A stretch of DNA of 64,000 nucleotides from Candidatus Cloacimonadales bacterium (GCA_963662585.1 OY759729.1:1859866-1923865), one strand, 5' to 3'. Counted from the first letter of the stretch, positions 1,736 through 62,676 are shown. Notes: generated by a model not told the origin, from the sequence alone. A program made the numbers and translations.

Positions 1736-4700
1736 TTGAAAAAGTTCAAAAGTTATTCCAGAATATCCAAGAAATTTATCGAGTTGGGAATACCTCAAGT
1801 AGAAGTACCAAATCTTCTATCTATGCAGGTTGATTCTTTTGAAGATTTTATCCAAAAAGATGTTCATCCTCAACAGCGAAAGAATTTCGGATTACAAGCT
1901 GTTTTTGAGAATTTATTTCCCATAACAGACCCTAAAGAAAACTACGAGCTCGAATTTGTAGAATACCGAATCTTAAAAGAAAAATATTCAATTGATGAAT
2001 GTATAGAAAGAAATTTATCGTACCAAGTTCCCTTAAAAATTAAATTAAGATTAAAAGTCTATGAAGTTGAAGAAGATGAAAATTTTGATATCATAGTAGA
2101 GAGTGTCGGTAGTAATGTAAATGATGTAAAGCAGTTTTTGATAACAGGTTTGAATTGGGATGAAGTTTCAGCTACTAATATACTGGAAGCAGTAGAGACC
2201 AATGAAGATACAAACAGGATTATAAACTCTTGTGATGAAGCTGAAGATGCAAAACAAATTCTAAACACCTTAAAAACTTTCGGAGTAACAGGAAGAATCC
2301 AAAAGAGGATTGATAAAACAAGAACTCTGAGAGATATAATGGAACAAGAAGTTTTCTTAGGTGATATTCCTTTGATTACAGAGCAAGGTACTTTTGTAAT
2401 TAACGGAGCTGAAAGAGTTATTATATCACAATTACAACGCTCACCAGGTGTATATTTCTCAGAAGAGAAACACCCTAGTGGCAAGATGTTAATATCATCA
2501 AAAATAATTCCATATAATGGAAGCTGGTTGGAATTCCATATCGACATACATGATGTTGTTTATGTAAATATTGATAAAAGAAGAAAACTACCAGTATCAA
2601 TTCTCTTAAGATCTGTTGGCTATATTCCAGAAAACTATACTGAAATTCCGGAAGCAAGAGAGACCTTACGCCTTTCAGACGAGAAAGGAAATGTTTCTTT
2701 AAAAGCCAAAAACAGTTATTCTTACTTTGATATATATGACCCTCGTGAAGGTCATGAAGATAAACTGATAGTTTCAGCTAAAACTAAACTTAATAATGAA
2801 TTAGTAGAAGAATTATTAAGTGTGGGTATAATTGAGATTGATACTATTAGTAATAAGTACATATCTACAGACAGAGTTCTTAGAGATGTATTTTATGACA
2901 TCGAAGAGATGCCATTAGACAAAGCAGATAAGAGATTTACTGCTTATGAGATAATAGGTTCAGATGGTGTTTTACTTGCTGAAGCTAATACTCAGATTGA
3001 TAAAGATCTGATTACTGAGCTTACAGAAAAAGGTATTAAAACTGTTAAAGTAGTCTCTGAAGACAGTGACTTTAATCGTAAGATACTTGAAAAAACACTA
3101 TTAAAAGATCCTTCAAGGAATCAAGAAGAAGCTGCTCAAAAAATATATAGCTTAGTGAGACCTGGTGAAGATGAAGTTCCTATTGAAAATGCAATGGATC
3201 TAATTGATAAAATGTTCTTCAATTCTAAAAGATATAATCTTGGTAATGTTGGACGCCATAAGTTAAATGCTAAACTAGATTTTGAGCATGATTATGGTAC
3301 AAATGTCTTAACACAAAGAGATTTTACTGAAATTATTCAGTATATGATCAGTATCTTTAAAGACGAAAAAGATGTAGATGATATAGATCACCTTGCTAAC
3401 AGAAGAGTTAGAACAGTTGGTGAATTGTTAGAAGAACAATATAAAACAGGTCTTTCAATGATCGCAAGAATCGCCTTAGAAAGAATGGCTATAGCGAATC
3501 CTGATGAAGTTACAGTGCATGATTTAATTAATAGTAATGCTCTTATAACTGTCATTGATTCTTTCTTCTTAACAGGTCAGTTGTCGCAGTTCATGGACCA
3601 AACAAACCCACTTTCAGCCCTAACACACAAGAGAAGATTGTCTGCTTTAGGACCTGGTGGTTTAGCTCGTGATAGAGCAGGATTCGAAGTTCGTGATATT
3701 CATTATTCACATTATGGAAGAATCTGTCCTATCGAAACACCTGAAGGCCCAAGTATTGGACTTTTAAACTCACCTGCGATTTATTCTCGCATTAATGAGT
3801 TTGGTTTCTTAGAAACACCTTATATTAAGGTTGAAAATGGTGTGATTACGAGTAGAGTTGATTATTTAGATGCTCATGAAGAGGATAAATATATCATAGC
3901 TCAACATGTAAATATTGATGATAATTTAGTAATTACAGATAAATATGTATTTTGTCGTGAAAAAGATGAGTATGTCAATGTTACTCCTGAACAGATAGAT
4001 TACATTGATGTATCACCTCAACAAGTTGTATCAGTATCAGCAGCTCTAGTTCCTTTCTTGGAACATGATGATGCTAACCGTGCTTTGATGGGATCTAACA
4101 TGCAGAGACAGTCTGTGCCGTTATTGAATCCTCAAACTCCTATTATTGGTACAGGAATTGAGAAAATAGTAGCTCGTGAATCTGGTGCTGTTGTCTTGGC
4201 TCAATATGATGGGGAAGTTACTAGTGTGACTTCTGAATATATTGACATAAAGCCTGATTCAACAACAGATAATATTGATTTAATTGGAGATGAAAGAATT
4301 TATCTCAAGAAATATGTTAGATCAAACCAAGATACTTGTATTAACCAACGCCCAATCGTTAGTATTGGAGATAAGGTTAAAAAAGGACAACCAATATCTG
4401 ACGGACCTGGTGTCGAAGGCGATAGATTAGCCTTGGGTACAAATATGGTAGTTGCATTCATGCCTTGGTATGGATTCAACTATGAAGATGCTATTATTTT
4501 GAGTGAACATGTAGCTCGAAAAGATACACTTACTTCTATCTATATTGAAGAGTTAGAAGTTTTAGTTAGAGATTTAAAAAATGGTAAAGAAGAGTTAGCA
4601 AGTGATATTCCTAATGTCCCTGTTAATTCTTTAAGAAACTTAGATAAATCAGGTATTATCCGAGTTGGTTCAGTTATTACAGCAGGGGATATCATAGTTG

Positions 4701-5980
4701 GTAAAATTACACCAAAATCTGTGGAAATAGATCCTTCTCCTGAAGAGAATTTAATGCGTGCTTTATTCGGCGACAGAGCTGGAGATTATACTAATAGTTC
4801 ATTGAAAGCAAAACCTGGAATGGAAGGTGTTGTTCTTGATGTTAAAGTGTTCTCTCGTTATGAAGACATGATTGAATTTGAGGAAGACCATAAAGCTCAA
4901 ATAGCTAAACTCAAGAAAGATAATATTGAAAGAAAGAAAAAAATCGAAGCATTTAAGAAAGAAAAGCTTAGTGAACTCCTTATAGGTGAAGTAGCTAAGA
5001 ATATCGTTGATTCTAAAGATGGCAGATTTTATATTCTTTCCGGTAAGAAAATTACAGCATCTGATCTAGAAAAGATTAATTTTACTAGAGTTAATTTAGA
5101 TGTTGAAATGGTAGCAGATCCTGAGAAATATAGAGAAATTTACAGAACTGTAGCTTTAAAAGTTAATGAAGCTATGGAAGAGAGCGAAAATATCTATAAA
5201 AAATCAAGAGATAGAATTAAACATGGTGATGAACTTCCTTATGGTGTTCGCAAGATGGTTAAAGTCTATATTGCTAAGAAGAGAAAGATTCAAGTCGGCG
5301 ATAAGATGGCGGGACGACATGGTAACAAAGGTGTTATATCAATCGTAGCCCCAATTGAGGATATGCCATTCATGGGTGATGGTACTCCTGTGGATATCGT
5401 ATTAAACCCACTTGGTGTTCCTTCTCGTATGAATATTGGACAGATCATGGAGACTCACCTTGGTATGGCAGCAAAATCTTTAGGATTCCATGTGGAAACA
5501 CCTATTTTTGATGGTGCTAAAATTGAAGATATTGAAGCTGAACTTAGAGAAGCTAATTTACCTACTGATGGTAAACAAGTCTTATATGATGGAAAAACTG
5601 GTGAGCCTTTCAAAGAGAGAGTTACAGTTGGTGTTATGTATATGATGAAACTTAATCATTTGGTAGCAGATAAGATGCATGCCAGATCAACAGGACCATA
5701 TTCATTAATTACTCAACAACCTCTTGGCGGTAAAGCACAACATGGTGGACAGCGTCTCGGAGAGATGGAGGTATGGGCTTTAGAAGCTTATGGTGCCGCT
5801 CATCTTCTAGAAGAGATGTTAACTATCAAATCTGATGATGTTGATGGAAGAACTAATGCTTTTAAAGCAATAACAAATGGACAGAATCCACCTGCTCCAG
5901 GTACTCCTGAATCATTTAATGTCTTAATTAGTGAATTAAAGTCTCTTGCTTTTGATATAGAGTTCTTGAAAGATGAGTAG
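1736..5980 (+). CDS. rpoB: DNA-directed RNA polymerase subunit beta, with lineage-specific insertions
   Basis: 1414 aa. Contains the rifampicin-cluster sequence GQLSQFMDQTNPLSALTHKRRLSALGPGGL and the C-terminal GGQRLGEMEVWALEAYGAA. TTG start with AAGGAG 7 nt upstream. Confidence 0.98.
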   Translation: MKKFKSYSRISKKFIELGIPQVEVPNLLSMQVDSFEDFIQKDVHPQQRKNFGLQAVFENLFPITDPKENYELEFVEYRILKEKYSIDECIERNLSYQVPLKIKLRLKVYEVEEDENFDIIVESVGSNVNDVKQFLITGLNWDEVSATNILEAVETNEDTNRIINSCDEAEDAKQILNTLKTFGVTGRIQKRIDKTRTLRDIMEQEVFLGDIPLITEQGTFVINGAERVIISQLQRSPGVYFSEEKHPSGKMLISSKIIPYNGSWLEFHIDIHDVVYVNIDKRRKLPVSILLRSVGYIPENYTEIPEARETLRLSDEKGNVSLKAKNSYSYFDIYDPREGHEDKLIVSAKTKLNNELVEELLSVGIIEIDTISNKYISTDRVLRDVFYDIEEMPLDKADKRFTAYEIIGSDGVLLAEANTQIDKDLITELTEKGIKTVKVVSEDSDFNRKILEKTLLKDPSRNQEEAAQKIYSLVRPGEDEVPIENAMDLIDKMFFNSKRYNLGNVGRHKLNAKLDFEHDYGTNVLTQRDFTEIIQYMISIFKDEKDVDDIDHLANRRVRTVGELLEEQYKTGLSMIARIALERMAIANPDEVTVHDLINSNALITVIDSFFLTGQLSQFMDQTNPLSALTHKRRLSALGPGGLARDRAGFEVRDIHYSHYGRICPIETPEGPSIGLLNSPAIYSRINEFGFLETPYIKVENGVITSRVDYLDAHEEDKYIIAQHVNIDDNLVITDKYVFCREKDEYVNVTPEQIDYIDVSPQQVVSVSAALVPFLEHDDANRALMGSNMQRQSVPLLNPQTPIIGTGIEKIVARESGAVVLAQYDGEVTSVTSEYIDIKPDSTTDNIDLIGDERIYLKKYVRSNQDTCINQRPIVSIGDKVKKGQPISDGPGVEGDRLALGTNMVVAFMPWYGFNYEDAIILSEHVARKDTLTSIYIEELEVLVRDLKNGKEELASDIPNVPVNSLRNLDKSGIIRVGSVITAGDIIVGKITPKSVEIDPSPEENLMRALFGDRAGDYTNSSLKAKPGMEGVVLDVKVFSRYEDMIEFEEDHKAQIAKLKKDNIERKKKIEAFKKEKLSELLIGEVAKNIVDSKDGRFYILSGKKITASDLEKINFTRVNLDVEMVADPEKYREIYRTVALKVNEAMEESENIYKKSRDRIKHGDELPYGVRKMVKVYIAKKRKIQVGDKMAGRHGNKGVISIVAPIEDMPFMGDGTPVDIVLNPLGVPSRMNIGQIMETHLGMAAKSLGFHVETPIFDGAKIEDIEAELREANLPTDGKQVLYDGKTGEPFKERVTVGVMYMMKLNHLVADKMHARSTGPYSLITQQPLGGKAQHGGQRLGEMEVWALEAYGAAHLLEEMLTIKSDDVDGRTNAFKAITNGQNPPAPGTPESFNVLISELKSLAFDIEFLKDE

Positions 5981-6012
5981 AAATCGTTGGAACAGAAACG
6001 GAGGATTTCTCA

Positions 6013-9000
6013 GTGAATAGAAACATTAAACGAGAAAAAAAGATAGAAAATTATGATGCCGTTCGTATTCGTATTGCCTCTCCTGATGCAATAAGAAGTT
6101 GGTCTTATGGAGAAGTTGTCAAACCTGACACCTTAAACTACCGTACACTAAAACCGGAGAAAGATGGTCTTTTCTGTGAAAGAATATTTGGACCGGAAAA
6201 AGATTACGAATGCTCATGTGGAAAGTATAAGAAAAAAAGATTTGCCGGAACTATTTGTGACCGTTGTGGAGTTGAAGTAACTTCATCAAGAGTGAGAAGA
6301 ACAAGAATGGGACATATTGAATTAGCTGTTCCTGTTGCTCATATCTCTTTTGTTAAGAGTGCTCCAAGTAAAATTGGTACTCTCTTAGGGCTCACAATTA
6401 GTAATTTGGAGAAAATCTTAGTCTATGAATCTTATGTTGTCTTGAATCCAGGTGAACAAGATTATCAAGTAGGTGAGCTTATTGATACAGAAGAATTTTA
6501 TGAAGTTCGTGATCAAGTATCACGAGACACAGAATTCTCTGCAAAAATAGGTGCTGAAGCTGTTAAAGAGATGCTTCAAGCCTTAAATCTTGATGATATT
6601 GCTGCTGATTTAAGAACCCGTATCAAATGGGAAACATCTACTATGCGTAAGCAAAAGATGATTAAGCGTCTCAAAGTTGTAGAAGCTTTCAGACAATCAG
6701 GCAACAGACCTGAATGGATGATTTTAGAAGTATTACCAGTACTTCCTCCTACCTTAAGACCATTAGTTCCTCTTGATGGTGGAAGATTCGCCACAGCTGA
6801 CTTTAATGATTTATATAGAAGAGTTATAACAAGAAATAATAGATTAAAAGGTCTGATAGAAATCAGAGCCCCCGAGGTGATTCTTAGAAATGAAAAGAGA
6901 ATGCTTCAGGAAGCTGTTGATGCTTTAATAGATAACTCTAAAAAAGCTAGACCAGTTAAGGGTAGAGGAAACAGAGCTCTTAAGAGTCTTACTGATCAAC
7001 TTAAAGGTAAGCAAGGTCGTTTCCGTCAAAACCTTCTTGGTAAGCGTGTAGATTACTCTGGCCGTTCAGTTATTACAGTTGGACCACACTTAAAAATCTA
7101 CGAAATGGGTTTACCAAAAGAAATGGCTGTTGAATTATTCAAACCTTTCATTATTGAAAGATTAGAAAAAATGGGAACAGCAGAGAAGACCAAAACAGCT
7201 AAGAAGATGGTTGAGAAGAAACAACCTGAAATCTGGAAAATCTTAGAAGAAGTTGTTAGAGATTATCCAGTTATGCTTAATAGAGCTCCTACTCTTCATA
7301 GATTAGGTATTCAAGCTTTTATGCCAGTATTAACTGAAGGAAAGTCTTTACAATTGCATCCAATGGTTTGTACACCATTTAATGCTGACTTTGATGGTGA
7401 CCAGATGGGTTGCTATATCCCTCTATCTCAGGAAGCTAGAATGGAAGCTCGTGTCTTGATGTTATCTTCAAGAAACTTGTTACTTCCTGCCAGTGGACGC
7501 CTCGCTATGGCTCCTTCTCAAGATATCGTGCTTGGTTGCTTCTATTTAACAATGGAAGGAAGTCCTGAGCCCAAAGAAGAAGAAGCTGTAAGAAAACTCA
7601 AGTGGTTCGGAAGTGTAGAAGAGATGGTTAATCACTACGAACAAGAAGAAATGCTCTATGATCAAAAGAGAAATTCTGAAGAGAGAAGATTAGTAGACAT
7701 TGGCATGAGAACCTTAAATCTTCACACTTGGATTAGAATTAAAATTAAAGATAAATGGGTTGTAACTACAGTTGGTAGAGTGCTATTTAATTTAGCATTA
7801 CCTATAGAGATCCCATTCCAAAATAAAGTATTTGATAAAGGTTCATTGAATGACATCGCTATGGATTGCTTCCACAAAGTAGGACAATGGGAAACTGCTA
7901 TCTTCTTAGATAAGATGAAAGAAACAGGTTTCAAATATGCTACTCGGGCAGGAATTACCTTTAGTTTTGGTGATATCATTGTTCCTAAAAAGAAATACGA
8001 AATTATTGAAAATACTCAAAAAGTAGTTGATGAAATAAACGACACTTATAATATGGGTGTAATCACTGATAATGAGCGCTCTTCTCGTATCGTTGATAGC
8101 TGGAAGATTGCTACTGAAGAAGTTACTGATAGTCTAATGGATGAGTTGAAAATTAGTGAAGGTGGATATAACTCAATCTATATGATGTATCTATCCGGAG
8201 CTCGTGGTAGTAAGACTCAGATTAAACAGCTTGGTGGTATGCGTGGTCTAATGGACAAACCTTCTGCTAAGGGTGGTGGAAACGAAGTTATTGAAACACC
8301 AATTAAATCTAACTTTAAAGAAGGTTTAAGTGTGTTGGAATTCTTCATCTCTACTCATGGTTCTAGAAAAGGTCTTGCTGATACTGCCCTTAAAACTGCT
8401 GGTGCTGGTTACTTAACTAGAAGATTAGTTGATGTTGCTCAGAATGCTATGATTGTTGAAGATGACTGTGGTACCATTGATGGTATTATCATGTCAGCTT
8501 TGAAAGAAGGTAACGAAGTTATCGAATCCTTGAAAGATAGAATTGCTGGTAGAACTGCTGTTGATGATGTTGAAGATCCACGCACAGGACAAATTATTGT
8601 TCATGCTGGTGAAGAGATATCAACAGATATGGCAGAAGTAATTCAGAAACATGGTGTTTTAAGTGTTAGAGTTAGATCAGTGTTGACTTGTCAATCTGAG
8701 AAAGGTATTTGTGCTAAATGTTATGGTATAAATCTTTCAACTCACAAGCCGGTTGCAGCTGGAGAACCTGTTGGTATTATCGCTGCTCAATCAATCGGTG
8801 AACCAGGTACTCAGCTTACTCTAAGAACATTCCATATCGGTGGTACTGCTTCTACTGATGTTGACTCAGCTGCTGTTGAAGCTAAAAATGACGGTTATAT
8901 CAAATTTGAAAATGTTCAATTTGTTGTAAATAGCCAAGGTCAAATGATATCTTCATCTCACTTGGGTAAACTCTTCGTAGTTCCAGAACCTGATTCTGAG

Positions 9001-11688: not shown

Positions 11689-11933
11689 GGTCATTAATAT
11701 TTTAATAGACTTCTTTCCTTATAAGCTCACTTGGTTACTCTATGTTCCTTTACTGACAATTCGATGGAAAATCAAATATTTTTCGAAAAGGGTGTGAAAG
11801 AGCAGGCTGAGACAGGATGATGAGGAGACACTAAGGATATAATTATAACTTTAGTTTTGGGATAATACTATTTATCATTGACACAAAATCCTCTAGATTA
11901 ATGCTAGTAAAAAAAGAGAGTTAGGAGAATAAT

Positions 11934-12347
11934 ATGGCTAAAATAGAAGCAATTGACTTCAAGAGAAGACGAGCTATTCCTACTAAGTACAAAACCCTCT
12001 TAGTTCTATTCTGCATAATAGGAATACTAATTCACTCATACTGGAATAAAAAAAGAGTTGAAAGCTTAGTTGTTGATAATGAGACTATTATGTTTGAAGA
12101 GATTAATATGCAATCAGTAATAATAAATTTTGCTATTTATAATACTACTCAAATTGAAAAATCCGAAAAAGTAAAAATCGAGATTGTTGACCAAAATAAC
12201 TATCTTGTAACTTCGACAATAAGATATCTGGAATTTCATAGGGGACAGAATTTATTCACTGAACAGATAAAATTTAAAAGAAGATTCCCTGATATAGAAA
12301 AGCGAAGTTTAAGAGCTATAATTTCTATTCATCCTCGTCGATTATGA
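11934..12347 (+). CDS. Hypothetical membrane-anchored protein (single N-terminal TM helix)
   Basis: 137-aa ORF with AGGAG upstream. Hydrophobic segment TLLVLFCIIGILIHSYW followed by a beta-rich soluble part. I recognise no family. Confidence 0.55.
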   Translation: MAKIEAIDFKRRRAIPTKYKTLLVLFCIIGILIHSYWNKKRVESLVVDNETIMFEEINMQSVIINFAIYNTTQIEKSEKVKIEIVDQNNYLVTSTIRYLEFHRGQNLFTEQIKFKRRFPDIEKRSLRAIISIHPRRL

Positions 12348-18120: not shown

Positions 18121-18183
18121 GAGAATTGAGAATTGAGAATTGAGAATTCAGAATTGAGAATTGAGAATGGAGAATTTAGAATT
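18121..18183. repeat. Heptanucleotide tandem array, (GAGAATT)x9 with 3 variant units
   Basis: Read directly: gagaatt x4, cagaatt, gagaatt, gagaatg, gagaatt, tagaatt. It starts on the base after the gpsA TAA stop. Confidence 0.95.
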
Positions 18184-18187
18184 AAAA

Positions 18188-18278
18188 GATGAGGGGCTTC
18201 TTAACTGGGAATGTGGGCTTCCAGCCCGCATCATTGCGAGGCAATGATATATCTTCAAACCCCAAGGGATTAAATAAA
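18188..18278. repeat. ~90-bp three-hairpin module, copy 1 (second copy at 50808-50898)
   Basis: GATGAGGGGCTTCTTAACTGGGAATGTGGGCTTCCAGCCCGCATCATTGCGAGGCAATGATATATCTTCAAACCCCAAGGGATTAAATAAA. Contains GGGCT-tcc-AGCCC, CATTGC-gag-GCAATG and CCC-caa-GGG hairpins. About 94 percent identical to the second copy by eye. Confidence 0.9.
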
Positions 18279-18306
18279 AAAGCAGGTTGAAATACAGCCT
18301 GATGGC

Positions 18307-18860
18307 TTCACGGACTAAAGGTCCGTAACCCCAGTTAATCACTAAAGATGATAGCTTACAGCATGATAATCCCTCTTCTGCCGGATTGTGGACAACCTGA
18401 AGACCGGAGTTCCTCAGCCGTAGGCAAGGGACTTCGGACGAAGAAATTTGTCTGTCGGAAGTAGCTATTCCGTAAAATTGCTTAAAAATCTAGAAATCCC
18501 TGTATCTAATGTAGAAGCAGAAACGCTTCCACTTTATAGAAGAAAACACCCCCTGTATCCCCCTCGCGGAGGGGGATTTAAGATTCACGGACTAAAGGTC
18601 CGTAACCCCAGTTAATCACTAAAGATGATAGCTTACAGCATGATAATCCCTCTTCTGCCGGATTGTGGACAACCTGAAGACCGGAGTTCCTCAGCCGTAG
18701 GCAAGGGACTTCGGACGAAGAAATTTGTCTGTCGGAAGTAGCTATTCCGTAAAATTGCTTAAAAATCTAGAAATCCCTGTATCTAATGTAGAAGCAGAAA
18801 CGCTTCCACTTTATAGAAGAAAACACCCCCTGTATCCCCCTCACAGAGGGGGATTTAAAA
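18307..18860. repeat. 277-bp direct repeat x2
   Basis: TTCACGGACTAAAGGTCCGTAACCCCAGTTAATCACTAAAGATGATAGC... begins at 18307 and again at 18584. The two copies are near-identical until about 18845. Confidence 0.9.
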
Positions 18861-18928
18861 ACACCCCGTCTGCTTCGCAGCCACCCCTCTTTTATCGTGC
18901 CTTCAGCACTAAAGAGGGGAGTTTAAGA

Positions 18929-19075
18929 TTCACGGACTAAAGATCCGTAACCCCAGTTAATCACTAAAGAGGGGGATTTAAGATTCACGGACTAAAGATC
19001 AGTAACCCCAGTTAATCACTAAAGAGGGGGATTTAAGATTCACGGACTAAAGGTCCGTAACCCCAGTTATTAAAT
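18929..19075. repeat. 55-bp tandem repeat, 2.7 copies
   Basis: TTCACGGACTAAAGATCCGTAACCCCAGTTAATCACTAAAGAGGGGGATTTAAGA starts at 18929, 18984 and 19039. Contains the ACGGAC-taaag-GTCCGT hairpin. Confidence 0.9.
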
Positions 19076-19296
19076 TATTTAGGATGGACAATTAGCTTGC
19101 CCTTTTGATTTATTATGGAATGGGGGCTATTCAGTGTATTATCTTCTTCGTGAAATTCATGAAAATGTAAGCAAGGGGCTTATTTTCGTAGAGATAAATA
19201 ATAATACAAATATGTCTGTTAGCATTTTTTAGATTTATTCTTTGACAAAATATAGTCCTATAATAAACTTTTCCCAAAAGTACCAAAAGGATAATC

Positions 19297-27976: not shown

Positions 27977-28294
27977 GAATTTAAAATTTTCACATAAATT
28001 AAGGCGAGGAGTATTTCTTTAATCGTCTAGGGAGGACATTTAATAGGGAGTGTTGGCAAGATACTCCTAGAGAATCCCCCCGAAATTACTTGGCCTCGCT
28101 AGCGGACAGGGGATAAACTGAAGATAAATGTAAAATAATCTGTCAAATTATTTAGGACTGGATACACTCAGAGGATTGGCATCGAAGATAAGGGGAGAGT
28201 TTTCGTTAATCATTCTCCTTCTAGATGAATAGTAAATGCTTATAGCAAAATTTCCTTCAAAGCGTTTGAAATATTAAAAAAACAAGGATTTAGT

Positions 28295-56940: not shown

Positions 56941-57020
56941 TTTCCCAATACTTCAGTAAAGCTGATAAGAAGCTTGACACAATAGTTAGTTAATAAAAGG
57001 ATGAAAATCCAAACACCGAT

Positions 57021-57070
57021 AAAGAGACATTTTCAATTAATTTTGATTTTGTCTCTTTTCTTATTTTTGA
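57021..57070 (+). terminator. Possible terminator after the FGE-domain gene pair
   Basis: AAAGAGAC (57021-57028) / GTCTCTTT (57051-57058), followed by TCTTATTTTTG. The 22-nt loop is long, so this is weak. Confidence 0.3.
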
Positions 57071-57355
57071 AATTCTATTGTCACACCACCTGTATCCCCC
57101 TCATAGAAGGAGATTTAAGAGTTATTGTAGCACCCCCTGTGTCCCCCTCATAGGAGGGGGATTTAAGAAAACACCCCGTCTGCTGCGCAGCCACCCCTCT
57201 TTTAGCGTGCCTTCAGCATTAAAGCGGGGAATTTGAAGATGTTGTACCAGATTAAACTTCCATCTACACATCTTTTAGTCTGCCTTGAGCAATCAAGGGG
57301 GAATTGAATAGGTAAAGACTCTTGTTTTCTTCATCATTATAATAGTAATAGCAAT

Positions 57356-57789
57356 CTTAAATCCCGGAGGGATAACATATAATAGGGAGTGTTCGCAAGA
57401 CACTCCTAAGGACACGACTGGAAAATAGCCCTAGAAGGGCGACATACCCTAAATGTATGAAATCAAATTAATAATTTCTTTTATAATTGACCTTATGGTT
57501 TATAAACTTTATTCCTAGATATCAATGAAACAATATTTATTGAACTTGGCTTTATTACAAAACTAAACTATTTTGGTTTATATGAACCGAATAGCAGAGA
57601 ATGAGTATTTAAGAAATAGTGAAACTTAGCAAAAGATTAAGATAAAAAAACACAATGATGATTAGGGATATTATGATGATTCTGGCAGGTCAGAGGATAT
57701 ATCGCCCTTCCAGGGCTATCTTTTTGTCGCGACATCTAGGAGTGTCTTGCGAGCACTCCCTATTATATGGCATCCCTTAGGGATTTAAG
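57356..57789. mobile_element. 434-bp inverted-repeat (MITE-like) element, copy 1
   Basis: The ~94-bp left arm (57356-57449) is the imperfect reverse complement of the right arm (57695-57789). The ~245-bp core is AT-rich and has no conserved ORF. Confidence 0.55.
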
Positions 57790-57998
57790 AGGAATCACCC
57801 CCTGTATCCCCCTCATAGAAGGGGATTTAAGAGTTATTGTAGCACCCCCTGTGTCCCCCTCATAGGAGGGGGATTTAAGAAAACACCCCGTCTGCTGCGC
57901 AGCCACCCCTCTTTTAGCGTGCCTTCAGCACTAAAGTGGGGAATTTGAAGATGTTGTACCAGATTAAACTTCCATCTACACATCTTTTAGTCTGCCTT

Positions 57999-58353
57999 TT
58001 CAGATTTGCTCCAGAGGAGCAGTTTCTTGGTAGCCATGAATTTGTTAAAGAAATCCCATCGCTCCGTAGGTGCGAAGATATACAAATTATCATCATTAAA
58101 GCTTAAAATAAATAGGTTTTTTTATCATAATCTTCATTGCCATAACATAAAAAGCAATTCGCACCTACGGAGCGATTTCTTTGGGGATATGACATTTATG
58201 CTACCAAGAAATAGCTCCACTGGAGCTAGAAATTAGCACTTCAGACTTCAGTACCAAAAATGGCAGTTGAAGAGTGTGATAATCCCTCTTCTGTCGGATT
58301 GAGGACAGCTTGTCCGCTGTGAATTGATTAATAGCAGATGAATAGTCTATTAA
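57999..58353. mobile_element. 355-bp nested insertion flanked by 15-bp direct repeats, containing its own 230-bp inverted-repeat element
   Basis: CTTTTAGTCTGCCTT occurs at 57984-57998 and 58354-58368. Copies 1 and 3 of the macro-repeat are uninterrupted at this site. Internal IR arms lie at 58004-58076 and 58158-58233. Confidence 0.6.
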
Positions 58354-58437
58354 CTTTTAGTCTGCCTTGAGCAATCAAGGGGGAATTGAATAGGTAAAGA
58401 CTCTTGTTTTCTTCATCATTATAATAGTAATAGCAAT

Positions 58438-58872
58438 CTTAAATCCCGGAGGGATAACATATAATAGGGAGTGTTCGCAAGACACTCCTAAGGACACGAC
58501 CGGAAAATAGCCCTAGAAGGGCGACATACCCTAAAAGAATGAAGTCAAATTAATAATTTTTTTTATAATTGACCTTATGGTTTATAAACTTTATTCACTA
58601 GATCAATCAAACAATATTTATTGAACCTGGCTTTATTACAAAAACTAAACTATTTTGGTTTATATGAACCGAATAGCAGAGAATGAGTATTTAAGAAATA
58701 GTGAAACTTAGCAAAAGATTAAGATAAAAAAGCACAATAATGATTAGGGATATTATGATGATTCTGGCAGGTCAAAGGGATATATCGCCCTTCCAGGGCT
58801 ATCTTTTTGTCGCGACATCTAGGAGTGTCTTGCGAGCACTCCCTATTATATGGCATCCCTTAGGGATTTAAG
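58438..58872. mobile_element. 434-bp inverted-repeat (MITE-like) element, copy 2
   Basis: Same arms and core as 57356-57789, differing by a few substitutions and by 1-2-nt indels. Confidence 0.55.
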
Positions 58873-59150
58873 AGGAATCACCCCCTGTATCCCCCTCATA
58901 GAAGGGGATTTAAGGGATTATTGTAGCACCCCCTGTATCCCCCTCATAGAAGGGGATTTAAGAAAACACCCCGTCTGTTTCGCAGCCACCCCTCTTTTAG
59001 CGTGCCTTCAGCACTAAAGCGGGGAATTTGAAGATGTTGTACCAGATTAAACTTCCATCTACACATCTTTTAGTCTGCCTTGAGCAATCAAGGGGGAATT
59101 GAATAGGTAAAGACTCTTGTTTTCTTCATCATTATAATAGTAATAGCAAT

Positions 59151-59586
59151 CTTAAATCCCGGAGGGATAACATATAATAGGGAGTGTTCGCAAGACACTC
59201 CTAAGGACACGACCGGAAAATAGCCCTAGAAGGGCGGCATACCCTAAATGTATGAAATCAAATCAATAATTTCTTTTATAATTGACCTTATGGTTTATAA
59301 ACTTTATTCACTAGATATCAATGAAACAATATTTATTGAACCTGGCTTTATTACAAAACTAAACTATTTTGGTTTATATGAACCGAATAGCAGAGAATGA
59401 GTATTTAAGAAATAGTGAAACTTAGCAAAAGATTAAGATAAAAAAACACAATGATGATTAGGGATATTATGATGATTCTGGCAGGTCAAAGGGATATATC
59501 GCCCTTCCAGGGCTATCTTTTTGTCGCGACATCTAGGAGTGTCTTGCGAGCACTCCCTATTATATGGCATCCCTTAGGGATTTAAG
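59151..59586. mobile_element. 434-bp inverted-repeat (MITE-like) element, copy 3
   Basis: Same arms and core as 57356-57789. Confidence 0.55.
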
Positions 59587-59772
59587 AGGAATCACCCCCC
59601 TGTATCCCCCTCATAGAAGGGGATTTAAGGGATTATTGTAGCACCCCCTGTGTCCCCCTCATAGAAGGGGATTTAAGGGATTATTGTAGCACCCCCTGTA
59701 TCCCCCTCATAGAAGGGGATTAAGAAAAAAGGCAAGCTTTGCAGATTGCCTTCATGTTTATCTATATGTATA

Positions 59773-59813
59773 CTATTAGTCTTCAATACCTCTATTAGTC
59801 TTCAATACCTCTA
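59773..59813. repeat. 19-bp tandem duplication spanning the thiC stop codon
   Basis: CTATTAGTCTTCAATACCT occurs at 59773-59791 and 59792-59810, followed by CTA. The second copy encodes the last residues and stop of thiC on the minus strand. Confidence 0.9.
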
Positions 59814-61072
59814 TCAGTTCTGACAGCACAGAGTTTTCCACACATAGTGCAATAATCATCATCTTTTGATTCAGAGTTACTTTTTCTTGATTTAGCTAAT
59901 TCTGGGTCTAGGGAGTTAGCATAAATTGTTTCCCAATCAAATTCTCTACGAGCTTTAGATACTCTATGATCTTGTTCGATAGCCCCAGGAACTTTCTTCA
60001 CAATATCCCCAGCATGGGCAGCAATTTTAGTGGCGATAATACCTTGTTTAACATCTTCAGGAGTTGGTAAGCAGAGGTGTTCCGCAGGAGTAACATAGCA
60101 GAGGAAATCTACTCCGGCAGCAGCAGCAAGTGCTCCACCGATAGCTCCAGTGATATGGTCATAACCAGACGCGATATCTGTAACTAGTGGACCTAAGACA
60201 TAGAAAGGTGCTTCTTTACAGATAGATTTCATAATCTTAACATTCATTTCTACTTGATCTAAAGGAATATGGCCTGGTCCTTCAACCATGACTTGAACTC
60301 CTCTTTTTCTAGCTCTTTCTACTAATTCGCCTAATACTAAAAGCTCAGCAAATTGCCCTCTATCAGAAGCATCAAATTGGGAGCCAGGTCTCATTCCATC
60401 ACCGAGTGATAGTGTTACATCATATTTAGCACAAATCTCTAAAAGACGGTCGTAATGTTCATAGAGAGGATTTTCGCATTTATGATTCTTCATCCATTGT
60501 TTGATAAGTGAACCACCACGAGAAACTATGCCTAATAATCTTTCAGAAGTTTCATAAGTAGCAACACTTTGTCTGGTGATTCCACAATGAACGGTTACGA
60601 AATCCACACCTAGCTTAGCATGATTTTCTATCTCTTCAAAAAGGAGGTCAGGAGTCATATCATAGAAAGCTTTCTCTTCAGCTAATAGTCTGCTCATTAC
60701 GCTATAGATGGGCACAGTACCCACCATAATAGGAGAAGAATCAACTACTTGCTTGAGGATGGCAGCTAAATCTCCACCTGTTGATAAATCCATAATGCTA
60801 TCTGCACCATATTTTACTGAAACATTAAGTTTTTCTAATTCTTCTTCAATAACGCAATGTTTTTCTGAAGTACCGATGTTGGAATTAACCTTAGTTTTTA
60901 GTCCGTAGCCTATACCAACTGCGCTGAAGTTATGATTAATATTTTTAGGAATTACTATTCTTCCTTTGGCAACTTCTTCTCTAATGTATTCTCCATTTCT
61001 ATTTTCTTTTTGGGCTACAATCTCCATTTCTGGAGTGATAATGCCTTTTAAAGCTGATTCTAATTGTGTCAT
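59795..61072 (-). CDS. thiC: Phosphomethylpyrimidine synthase ThiC (short form)
   Basis: 425 aa with the C-terminal Fe-S motif CTMCGKLCAV and ThiC-like strings (GTVPIY, DFVTVHCG, GPGHIP). Confidence 0.93.
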   Translation of the reverse strand: MTQLESALKGIITPEMEIVAQKENRNGEYIREEVAKGRIVIPKNINHNFSAVGIGYGLKTKVNSNIGTSEKHCVIEEELEKLNVSVKYGADSIMDLSTGGDLAAILKQVVDSSPIMVGTVPIYSVMSRLLAEEKAFYDMTPDLLFEEIENHAKLGVDFVTVHCGITRQSVATYETSERLLGIVSRGGSLIKQWMKNHKCENPLYEHYDRLLEICAKYDVTLSLGDGMRPGSQFDASDRGQFAELLVLGELVERARKRGVQVMVEGPGHIPLDQVEMNVKIMKSICKEAPFYVLGPLVTDIASGYDHITGAIGGALAAAAGVDFLCYVTPAEHLCLPTPEDVKQGIIATKIAAHAGDIVKKVPGAIEQDHRVSKARREFDWETIYANSLDPELAKSRKSNSESKDDDYCTMCGKLCAVRTDRGIED

Positions 61073-62469: not shown

Positions 62470-62549
62470 TCCTCCAATTAATTTTGTTTTGTTTTGGAGG
62501 ATAATGCCTTGTAGAAGGTCAAAAAAATGTAAGGTGTGTATAAAAAATC

Positions 62550-62626
62550 GCATCTCACTTCCTTCGCCGGCATTACCCGGATCAGGTTCTAAGGGTATAA
62601 TCTCAGCCTTTCGGCACCCCTGAATC
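62550..62626 (-). promoter_or_regulatory. TPP (THI-box) riboswitch aptamer
   Basis: The minus strand reads CAGGGGTGCCGAAAGGCTGAGATTATACCCTTAGAACCTGATCCGGGTAATGCCGGCGAAGGAAGTGAGATG. It contains the GGGGTGC, CTGAGA, ACCCTT, AACCTGATC..GG.TAAT.CC.GCG.AGGAA consensus blocks. Confidence 0.92.
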
Positions 62627-62676
62627 TGCATGATCTTAGCCAATAAAAAATACTAACTAAAAGTGTCAAGATTAAA

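Follow-up and report, generated by a model that had tools for sequence, protein, structure and literature searches.

A triplicated, gene-free hairpin mosaic resembling REP-type repeats between convergent genes of a Candidatus Cloacimonadales bacterium

Introduction

Systems of repetitive extragenic palindromes (REPs), bacterial interspersed mosaic elements (BIMEs) and REP-associated tyrosine transposases (RAYTs) are understood mainly from work in Proteobacteria. The BIMEs of E. coli have periods of roughly 80-100 bp, and REPINs, which are hairpin-forming doublets of inverted REPs with a short spacer, over-represented in their genomes, are around 100 bp long. In E. coli and other Proteobacteria, BIMEs are extragenic mosaics of REP types, arranged in both orientations with variable linkers, often in tandem and typically located between convergent genes; tandem copies of pairs of a REP and an inverted REP (iREP) are a documented property of these elements (PMC8266576). 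No REP literature was found for Cloacimonadota. The present work concerns a stretch of 64,000 nucleotides from a Candidatus Cloacimonadales bacterium (GCA_963662585.1 OY759729.1:1859866-1923865), referred to below as the window and numbered from its first letter, in which the spacer between two convergent genes is occupied by a non-coding unit of about 713 bp present in three tandem copies. The reading favored here, which is considered probable but by no means secure, is that this spacer is a REP/BIME-like mosaic of hairpin modules that contains a gene-less REPtron shell and was triplicated by unequal recombination between flanking 48-bp repeats.

A further point of comparison is provided by Y1 enzymes. 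Proteins of TnpAY1 subclass 1.2 have the motifs DH[IV]H, WQ and Y---Q--HH, are about 148 aa long with a C-terminal tail that is conserved, and occur in low copy (PMC6006769). It is listed in Cyanobacteria and Bacteroidetes, and its members are low-copy genes without IS200 ends (Quentin et al. 2018, PMC6006769). What is new at the locus described here is a different tag, arms composed of three hairpins, a macro-unit of 713 bp and a link to this Y1 subclass, which had been described as repeat-free.

A composite block in three tandem copies

The spacer extends from the stop codon of the second FGE-domain lipoprotein gene (56940, +) to that of thiC (59795, -). These gene identities follow the orthologous locus (L004), which is annotated with the Pfam families FGE-sulfatase and ThiC_Rad_SAM; the ThiC protein of the window is 95% identical to that of the ortholog (P0001). 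In agreement with the original prediction of a gene-free convergent spacer of 2.85 kb, the list of open reading frames (ORFs) in the spacer contains none of at least 40 aa that is conserved across the three unit copies, and the longest ORF, of 76 aa, lies inside an insertion private to unit 2. A coding reading of the units is rejected, as the small ORFs differ among the copies through indels. The array is laid out as follows, with periods determined by Tandem Repeats Finder (TRF).

56941 to 59794 (no strand): whole convergent intergenic spacer, 2854 bp, FGE-sulfatase-domain lipoprotein gene (+) to thiC (-), from the ORF list and the Pfam annotation of the ortholog
57076 to 59729: extent of the repeat array, three ~713-bp units plus a tail of 48-bp repeats
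57076 to 57168 (+): head pair of module A repeats of 47/48 bp (TATTGTAGCACCCCCTGTATCCCCCTCATAGAAGGGGATTTAAG..), first copy diverged; TRF period 47, 2.0 copies
57084 to 57795 (+): unit 1, 712 bp, A-A-B-C-linker-[inverted-repeat element]
57796 to 58878 (+): unit 2, 1083 bp, that is, 713 bp plus 370 bp
58879 to 59592 (+): unit 3, 714 bp
59593 to 59729 (+): tail of three module A copies; TRF 59596-59721, period 48, 2.6 copies, 97% matches
57999 to 58353 (+): private insertion in module C of unit 2, 355 new bases, absent in units 1 and 3
58008 to 58226 (no strand): 219-bp long-hairpin (MITE/REPIN-like) element within this insertion, an inverted repeat

A chance origin of these repeats is excluded. 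For the 24-nt core of the anchor, the window should contain 0.01 matches and has eight; the other unit modules have three matches each where 0 would be expected. Direct-repeat families recur at 712, 1083 and 714-715 bp, measured from start to start, and the anchor starts lie at 57084 (a variant), 57796, 58879 and 59593/4, which confirms the four anchors and the periods of 712, 1083 and 714 bp that had been proposed. Two details of that proposal needed correction by TRF: the truncated tail of three sub-repeats is present, but its period is 48 bp rather than 46-47 bp, and an anchor does stand at 57084, although the array effectively starts at 57076.

Without the insertion, the units measure 712, 713 and 714 bp and are 97.2-97.6% identical to one another, each pair differing by 13-15 substitutions and 4-5 indel columns. 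The near-identity of the copies and their 1-2-nt indels, both part of the original prediction, were thus recovered, the indels at alignment columns 433, 438-439, 478 and 615. The divergence is roughly star-like, with private changes in each copy and an equal distance between copies at about 97.4% identity. All units follow the order A-A-B-C-linker-[L arm - core - R arm], the head pair and the tail copies of module A form direct repeats that bracket the amplified block, and the A-pair linker of unit 3 is of the tail type. Because the units are equidistant and 48-bp direct repeats stand on either side of the block, they are three tandem duplicates of one composite block and not three insertions. 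The earlier suggestion of a pile-up of non-autonomous mobile elements was right about the kind of DNA involved, the modules being dispersed hairpin repeats and the inverted-repeat element sharing its arms with Y1-bearing elements of relatives; it did not identify the repeats as being of REP/BIME/REPtron character. The star-like divergence, together with the tail-type linker of unit 3, fits recombination within the A repeats.

The additional 370 bp in the second period, also predicted, are real and consist of 355 new bases and a 15-bp direct duplication, CTTTTAGTCTGCCTT, whose copies lie at 57984-57998 and 58354-58368. This insertion is itself a mosaic, containing the 219-bp hairpin and a module termed E, and its whole length of 370 nt folds as DNA with -66 kcal/mol (z = -8.7). 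A target-site duplication around the 219-bp hairpin was looked for, and none was seen.

The resemblance to BIMEs lies in the combination of module mosaics reused at several loci with tandem amplification: three tandem units carry inverted arms, and a composite of modules A and B is used again at 18.8 kb beside different neighbors. The locus departs from a BIME in its period of 713 bp and in the inverted-repeat element of 436 bp that is embedded in the unit.

Hairpin modules and their shared tag

Like REPs, which are imperfect palindromes of 20-50 nt, the modules of the window are short imperfect palindromes in extragenic DNA, but they lack the GT[AG]G foot of REPs and carry instead a 3' tag, GGGATTTAAGA. 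Module A is the 48-bp repeat, built on the hairpin ATCCCC-N9-GGGGAT. Other modules and their further occurrences are listed below; CM R1 denotes a covariance model (CM) of the arms described in the next section.

57168 to 57238 (+): module B, hairpin CCCCTCTTTTAGCGTGC..GCACTAAAGCGGGG plus tag AATTTGAAG; repeated at 57880-57950 and 58963-59033
57272 to 57308 (+): module C, CTTTTAGTCTGCCTTGAGCAATCAAGGGGGAATTGAA; copies at 58354-58390 and 59067-59103; three exact matches against 0 expected
58262 to 58353 (+): module E (..ATCCCTCTTCTGTCGGATTG..), dispersed; also at 18364-18394 and 18641-18671 (93.5% over 31 nt)
18307 to 19080 (+): second mosaic cluster of tagged hairpin modules, with a 277-bp tandem duplication, the A-B composite and the 55-bp module D three to four times
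28011 to 28136 (+): solitary diverged arm in another intergenic region; CM R1 40.8 bits, E = 2e-6; blastn 91% over 34 nt

Module C is a diverged relative of the module B hairpin, both being about 38 nt long, and module E was also found, by alignment, in the spacer of the ortholog. The GGGATTTAAGA tag or a close variant lies 3' of the hairpin in modules A, B and D, and the same tag is carried by the outer ends of both arms of the inverted-repeat element. In total, tags of this type occur 18 times in the window against 0.31 expected, 14 of them on the plus strand and four on the minus strand, where three of the four belong to left arms. REPs are dispersed over genomes in high copy number; within the 64 kb of the window, members of the present repeat family are found in 3 of the 14 intergenic regions longer than 120 bp. 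Modules A to C, as well as the hairpins H1 to H3 of the arms, fold as small hairpins, and every copy is intergenic.

The modules of the spacer array also make up the intergenic region 18121-19296. It contains the 277-bp tandem duplication at 18307-18858, whose copies are 99% identical, the A-B composite at 18824-18920 (92-93% identity over 99-100 nt) and tandem repeats of module D at 18914-19080. The macro-repeats of the spacer had been regarded as unusual; the array is real, but it is not unique, as this second region shares its modules and has a tandem duplication of its own. A run of about ten GAGAATT heptamers (18121-18197) is found directly past the stop codon of the upstream gene, ahead of the second mosaic cluster.

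The inverted-repeat element and its three-hairpin arms

Each unit ends with an inverted-repeat element, predicted at 434 bp and measured at 436 bp, in which two arms enclose an AT-rich core.

57355 to 57790 (no strand): element copy 1, 436 bp; arms 57355-57452 and 57694-57790, AT-rich core 57453-57693; CM R1 108.7 and 107.3 bits
58437 to 58873 (no strand): element copy 2; arms 58437-58534 and 58778-58873; CM R1 107.3 and 106.6 bits
59150 to 59587 (no strand): element copy 3; arms 59150-59247 and 59492-59587, core 59248-59491; CM R1 105.6 and 106.6 bits
57427-57441 (+), 57703-57717 (-), 58509-58523 (+), 58786-58800 (-), 59222-59236 (+) and 59500-59514 (-): hairpin H3, AGCCCTNNNAGGGCG, innermost in the arm

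The arms are about 97 nt long and pair through a 54-nt core that is 91% complementary and a 36-nt stretch at 81%. Each is a composite of three hairpins, namely H1 (ATCCC-N3-GGGAT), H2 (GGGAGTG-N7-CACTCC) and H3 (GCCCT-N3-AGGGC). An alignment of 13 arms contains 18 consensus pairs, four of them with compensatory changes; CM R1 was built from this alignment, and under it the six arms of the window score 105-109 bits (E about 1e-20). Hairpin H3 has six matches in the window, all in the six arms, against 0.07 expected. As single-stranded DNA, element copy 3 can instead fold into one long hairpin of -83.9 kcal/mol (z = -10.8). The core of 243 bp has about 27% G+C, is non-coding and gathers indels; an element with such a core and nothing else between its arms is a gene-less "REPtron shell". 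Searches by tblastn with four Y1 proteins detected no significant remnant of a Y1 gene in the spacer or the 64-kb window, and no target-site duplication of the 436-bp element is present at 57354/57791 or the equivalent positions.

These properties invite comparison with two kinds of small non-autonomous element. As in a REPIN, two inverted hairpin arms fold into one long hairpin (the z-score given above) and the element is non-autonomous, but the arms are separated by a 243-bp core instead of a short spacer, which brings the total to 436 bp. As in miniature inverted-repeat transposable elements (MITEs) and TIRYT elements, the element is small and non-coding and has terminal inverted repeats, and the 219-bp hairpin in unit 2 is also MITE-like. 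It differs from a MITE in having no target-site duplication and in that copies with the core were found only in the tandem array. The inverted-repeat consensus GGGG[AT][CG]A[CG] and the subclass 2.1 proteins of TIRYTs (PMC6006769) do not apply.

Arms around Y1 genes in related genomes

Collections of genomes and metagenomes were scanned with the H2 hairpin pattern, which in its initial, strict form matched left arms only, and each scan yielded three loci, too few for statistics but sufficient to bring out the connection with Y1 genes. Among representative genomes, matches occurred only in two Cloacimonadales metagenome-assembled genomes (MAGs), and the only metagenome sample matched also holds the closest relative of the window.

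In locus L002 (OY782831.1), arms at 5510-5606 and 6165-6265 that are 81-84% identical to those of the window flank an ORF of 154 aa (5688-6152), which encodes a Y1 transposase of the HUH type (PF01797, E = 1e-25). This protein scores 67 bits with the NCBIfam IS200 equivalog NF033573, above the cutoff of 55, and its closest relatives in the PDB are the TnpA proteins of IS608 and ISDra2, E. coli TnpA-REP not being among the matches. In L011, arm copies likewise flank a Y1 gene, and on its upstream side three of them are repeated in tandem at 69 bp. The arms of L013 are inverted around the gene, one standing upstream while the right arm is repeated five times in tandem downstream at 148 bp. The TARA contig L015 has 69-bp arm arrays on both sides of its Y1 gene and a 123-nt inverted repeat at 89%. 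The presence of tandem arm arrays in three independent relatives indicates that amplification is a property of this family. Variant arms with compensatory stem changes (GGCAGTG..CACTGC) are found in L012.

The motif of the innermost hairpin, H3, brackets the Y1 gene in L013, L014, L019 and L020, and in Algoriphagus, a member of the Bacteroidota, AGCCCT-N3-AGGGCG brackets the homologous Y1 gene at a distance of 9 nt from the start codon and 12 nt from the stop.

2478-2492 and 2965-2979 of Algoriphagus sp. NG3 (L019, CP139421.1): H3 hairpins around the subclass 1.2 Y1 gene

The original prediction had considered whether homologous copies elsewhere carry a conserved ORF. This holds for the arms, which accompany the Y1 gene, but not for the core of the window element, in which no trace of an ORF was found.

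Not every arm pair encloses a Y1 gene. In L003 (OY829950.1, 4328-7518), arms forming an 86-nt inverted repeat at 92% surround a 3-kb restriction-modification cassette of the HaeIII type and no Y1 gene; the cassette encodes a C5 methyltransferase of 408 aa and a HaeIII-family endonuclease of 323 aa (PF00145 and PF09556). This raises the possibility that cargo is exchanged within the arms. An IS3-like transposase ORF (3137-3922) lies just upstream of the cassette. In the Y1 protein of L012 (OY829950.1, 3001-3453), the HuH motif reads DDHIYIL, with the second histidine replaced by tyrosine, and this enzyme may be inactive. In metagenome 3300028602, all three loci (L009, L010 and L011) have their arms within 250 nt of a contig end, as would be expected of repeats that break short-read assemblies; L010 and L011 overlap as reverse complements.

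The situation in the relatives recalls a REPtron, in that the same arms, inverted, flank a low-copy and syntenic Y1 gene (L002, L011, L013, L015 and L019). The differences are that the copies in the window have neither gene nor remnant, hence the term shell, that the Y1 proteins of the relatives have the Y---Q--HH motif of subclass 1.2 and not the Y---NP motif of class 2 TnpA-REP, and that the arm is a 97-nt composite of three hairpins. IS200/IS605 elements are approached through the associated protein, an IS200-like Y1 HUH enzyme, and through the short hairpins beside the gene; they differ from the present case, which has long inverted-repeat ends instead of distinct left-end and right-end hairpins, no tnpB, and a single-copy, syntenic gene.

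Class and behavior of the associated enzyme

The Y1 proteins of the relatives are 150 aa long and contain the motifs EDHIHIL, SWQEGYG and YIEDQENHH (YIENQKEHH in L011), with YIDKQKIHH as a further variant. Among the best 120 of 801 Y1 matches (E <= 1e-10), nearly all are 150 aa in length. By motifs and length (Table 1 of PMC6006769), the gene is assigned to TnpAY1 subclass 1.2; class 2 TnpA-REP, or RAYT, was considered and rejected, as the proteins lack the Y---NP motif (Table 1 of PMC6006769).

A syntenic slot, in the order Disaggr_repeat protein - Y1 - rotamase - PgpA, is common to genomes whose Y1 proteins are only 71% identical, which points to long vertical inheritance of the gene. The slot is kept in JGI digester-type contigs (L013/L014) and TARA marine contigs (L015-L017). 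Within a 3.07-Mb chromosome, Y1 is found at one place. Judged by this synteny and single location, the gene appears to behave as a domesticated RAYT rather than as an insertion sequence (IS).

The orthologous locus

Locus L004 has the same FGE-FGE/thiC synteny as the window and a spacer of 867 bp, which shares with the window only the segments 56967-57068 and 59691-59795. In place of window positions 57069-59690, L004 has 261 bp of other small hairpins, among them a degenerate arm.

11546-11629 of L004 (R-arm orientation): degenerate arm in the spacer; CM R1 31.9 bits, E = 2e-4

The degenerate arm suggests that this site has long been occupied by the repeat family, while the lack of the array indicates that the three-unit form is specific to the lineage of the window. 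A repeat of about 105 bp (GAGACCTCTTTTATGGATTGCGGATCAGCTTGCCCGCGAAAG...) occurs twice in the L004 spacer (11890-12110) and is unrelated to the units of the window except for a core similar to module E.

Origin of the array

According to the favored reading, the genome would encode, at another locus, a Y1 enzyme that uses the hairpins as single-stranded-DNA substrates and may have seeded modules in the spacer and in other intergenic sites. A block A-A-B-C-[arm-core-arm], bracketed by 48-bp direct repeats of module A, could then have passed from one to three copies in quick succession by unequal homologous recombination or replication slippage between the A repeats. The copies would afterwards have diverged by about 2.5%, and unit 2 would have gained the further mosaic insertion of 355 bp. 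The convergent junction is a permissive place, and the array there is most likely tolerated as selfish or neutral DNA that probably has no function; the outward hairpin-plus-T-tract motifs of the arms could nevertheless add transcription termination or insulation as a by-product.

Several observations weigh against this explanation. No GTAG or GTGG abuts H1, H2 or H3 in the arm alignment, so the GT[AG]G sequence at the 5' foot of the hairpin is lacking; GTAG is present 5' of module A (TTGTAGCACCCCC), but not at the foot of the stem. The 64-kb window contains no Y1 gene, so that the cognate enzyme in the genome is a presumed one. A sensitive blastn comparison of the 243-bp core with all fetched loci revealed no relation to a Y1 gene or any other locus, which leaves derivation of the window element from a gene-bearing element by deletion hypothetical. 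Beyond the three tandem copies no element with this core came to light, and any mobility of this particular element is hypothetical. The loci recovered by the arm-hairpin scans are few, three for each type of collection. Recombination between the A repeats is read from the architecture only, and Y1 catalysis or slippage would have left an identical picture. Finally, Quentin et al. (2018, PMC6006769) report no REP association for subclass 1.2; the arms flanking subclass 1.2 genes in the relatives contradict this.

Alternative explanations

A possible, though rather unlikely, alternative is that the inverted-repeat elements are MITEs, internal-deletion derivatives of active IS200-like insertion sequences, and that insertion was followed by segmental duplication; the family would then be a genuine selfish IS and not a domesticated REP/RAYT system. 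The gene flanked by the arms in L002 does exceed the IS200 equivalog cutoff (67 vs 55 bits), its best structural relatives are IS608 and ISDra2 TnpA and not E. coli TnpA-REP, and the window element is a non-coding sequence of less than 500 bp with terminal inverted repeats. Against this origin, the ends of IS200/IS605 elements are dissimilar subterminal hairpins, not inverted arms of ~100 nt (PMC6006769), and a Y1 gene kept in a conserved slot at 71% identity and present at one place in a 3.07-Mb genome is unlike an IS. Moreover, no target-site duplication is seen at the element, and no copy sharing its core turned up outside the array.

A bolder proposal, to which only a small likelihood is given, goes beyond the favored reading. 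It holds that the three-hairpin arms would represent an unrecognised cassette class dependent on subclass 1.2 Y1 enzymes, with exchangeable cargo (Y1, the HaeIII-type system of L003, or nothing). The arrays of 69, 148 and 713 bp would then be direct products of single-strand cleavage and rejoining by Y1 at tagged hairpins, not of host recombination. The triplicated empty shell would be a snapshot of that amplification, and H3, found from Bacteroidota to Cloacimonadota, would be the cognate site.

An assembly artefact had been raised in the original prediction and is unlikely; a long-read metagenome assembly might, for example, have joined strain variants of a single unit in series. The closest relatives are indeed MAGs, a divergence of ~2.5% between units is plausible between strains, and the nearest ortholog lacks the array. 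Yet each copy has private substitutions and indels, and the private 370-bp insertion is flanked by a 15-bp duplication of its own; the junctions show a regular arrangement, in 48-bp repeats that also bracket the array. In addition, tandem arm arrays occur in independent assemblies (L011, 69 bp x3; L013, 148 bp x5; L015), and a second tandem duplication exists at 18.3-18.9 kb.

The other earlier suggestion, an array of structured RNAs, finds no support, and it is very improbable that the units are structured non-coding RNAs or cis-regulatory or terminator modules selected for a role in the host, for instance in the insulation of convergent transcription or the stability of mRNA. Such a role would be in keeping with conserved hairpins showing some compensatory changes, with the position between convergent genes, and with terminator-like motifs, of which there are 14 against 2.6 expected. 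Twelve of these 14 are the H2 and H3 hairpins of the arms, every one facing outward, and the remaining pair is formed by the two ends of the 219-bp hairpin element within the insertion of unit 2. However, a search of the whole window with Rfam 15 at gathering score gave nothing in 56.8-59.9 kb, and at E<=1 the spacer region returned only sub-threshold, chance-level matches to MIR812, MIR4416, Acido-Lenti-1 and BaMV_CRE. We attribute the two microRNA-precursor matches to the long hairpin that lies in the insertion of unit 2, and regard the others as hairpin-driven too. A sigma-70 scan found three promoter-like sites in the array against 8.9 expected, which is below chance. The hairpins lie in both orientations, as is the case with DNA palindromes, and the core gathers indels. 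The 95%-related ortholog has this gene pair but not the array, which in the window lies beyond the putative terminators of both genes.

The notion that modules B and C and the 33 nt that separate them form a degenerate or orphan CRISPR-like mini-array of the repeat-spacer-repeat type is rejected as highly implausible: the two modules share a hairpin repeat of ~38 nt at ~78% identity about 72 nt apart and both end in ..GGGGAATT(T)GAA, reminiscent of the 3' handles of CRISPR RNAs, but each unit has no more than two copies, all three units share an identical 'spacer', module A repeats abut without spacers, module B is joined to unrelated modules at 18.9 kb, and the window, in which cas genes were not surveyed, contains no variable-spacer array.

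A plasmid or phage origin of the array was also rejected at the sensitivity of the searches made, as neither distant blastn comparison with plasmids and phages nor two pattern scans of viral contigs gave a match.

Significance

If the favored reading is correct, subclass 1.2 Y1 enzymes gain a candidate DNA substrate that is directly testable in vitro, and REP-type repeat biology is extended to a poorly studied, uncultivated phylum. There is also a practical side: tandem repeats of 0.7 kb break short-read assemblies, related contigs end inside arms, and such arrays can be mistaken for artefacts or for novel RNA genes. As probable neutral selfish DNA, the array of the window has modest biological importance in its own right. 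Of greater interest as leads are the occurrence of hairpin H3 across phyla and the arms that enclose a restriction-modification cassette.

Flanking genes and further observations

The repeat array fits exactly between two putative terminators, one for each of the convergent genes.

56967 to 57068 (+): left flank kept in the ortholog, 88% identical to L004 11722-11621
59729 to 59752 (-): hairpin AAGGCAA..TTGCCTT, followed by a T-run on the minus strand; kept in the ortholog

On the left, a hairpin read directly from the sequence, AAAGAGACA...TGTCTCTTT at 57021-57058, is followed by a T-run and is the putative terminator of the FGE gene. On the right, window positions 59691-59795 match L004 11359-11259 at 80%, and the hairpin at 59729-59752 with its T-run is a likely terminator of thiC.

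Across the thiC stop codon, at 59773-59818, lies a 19-bp tandem duplication, CTATTAGTCTTCAATACCT, in 2.4 copies; the single copy of this sequence in L004 suggests that the duplication in the window is recent. The sole Rfam match at gathering score in the window is a thiamine pyrophosphate (TPP) riboswitch (RF00059) at 62542-62631 (-), with 65.9 bits, which is located upstream of the thi4-thiE-thiC operon whose end adjoins the spacer.

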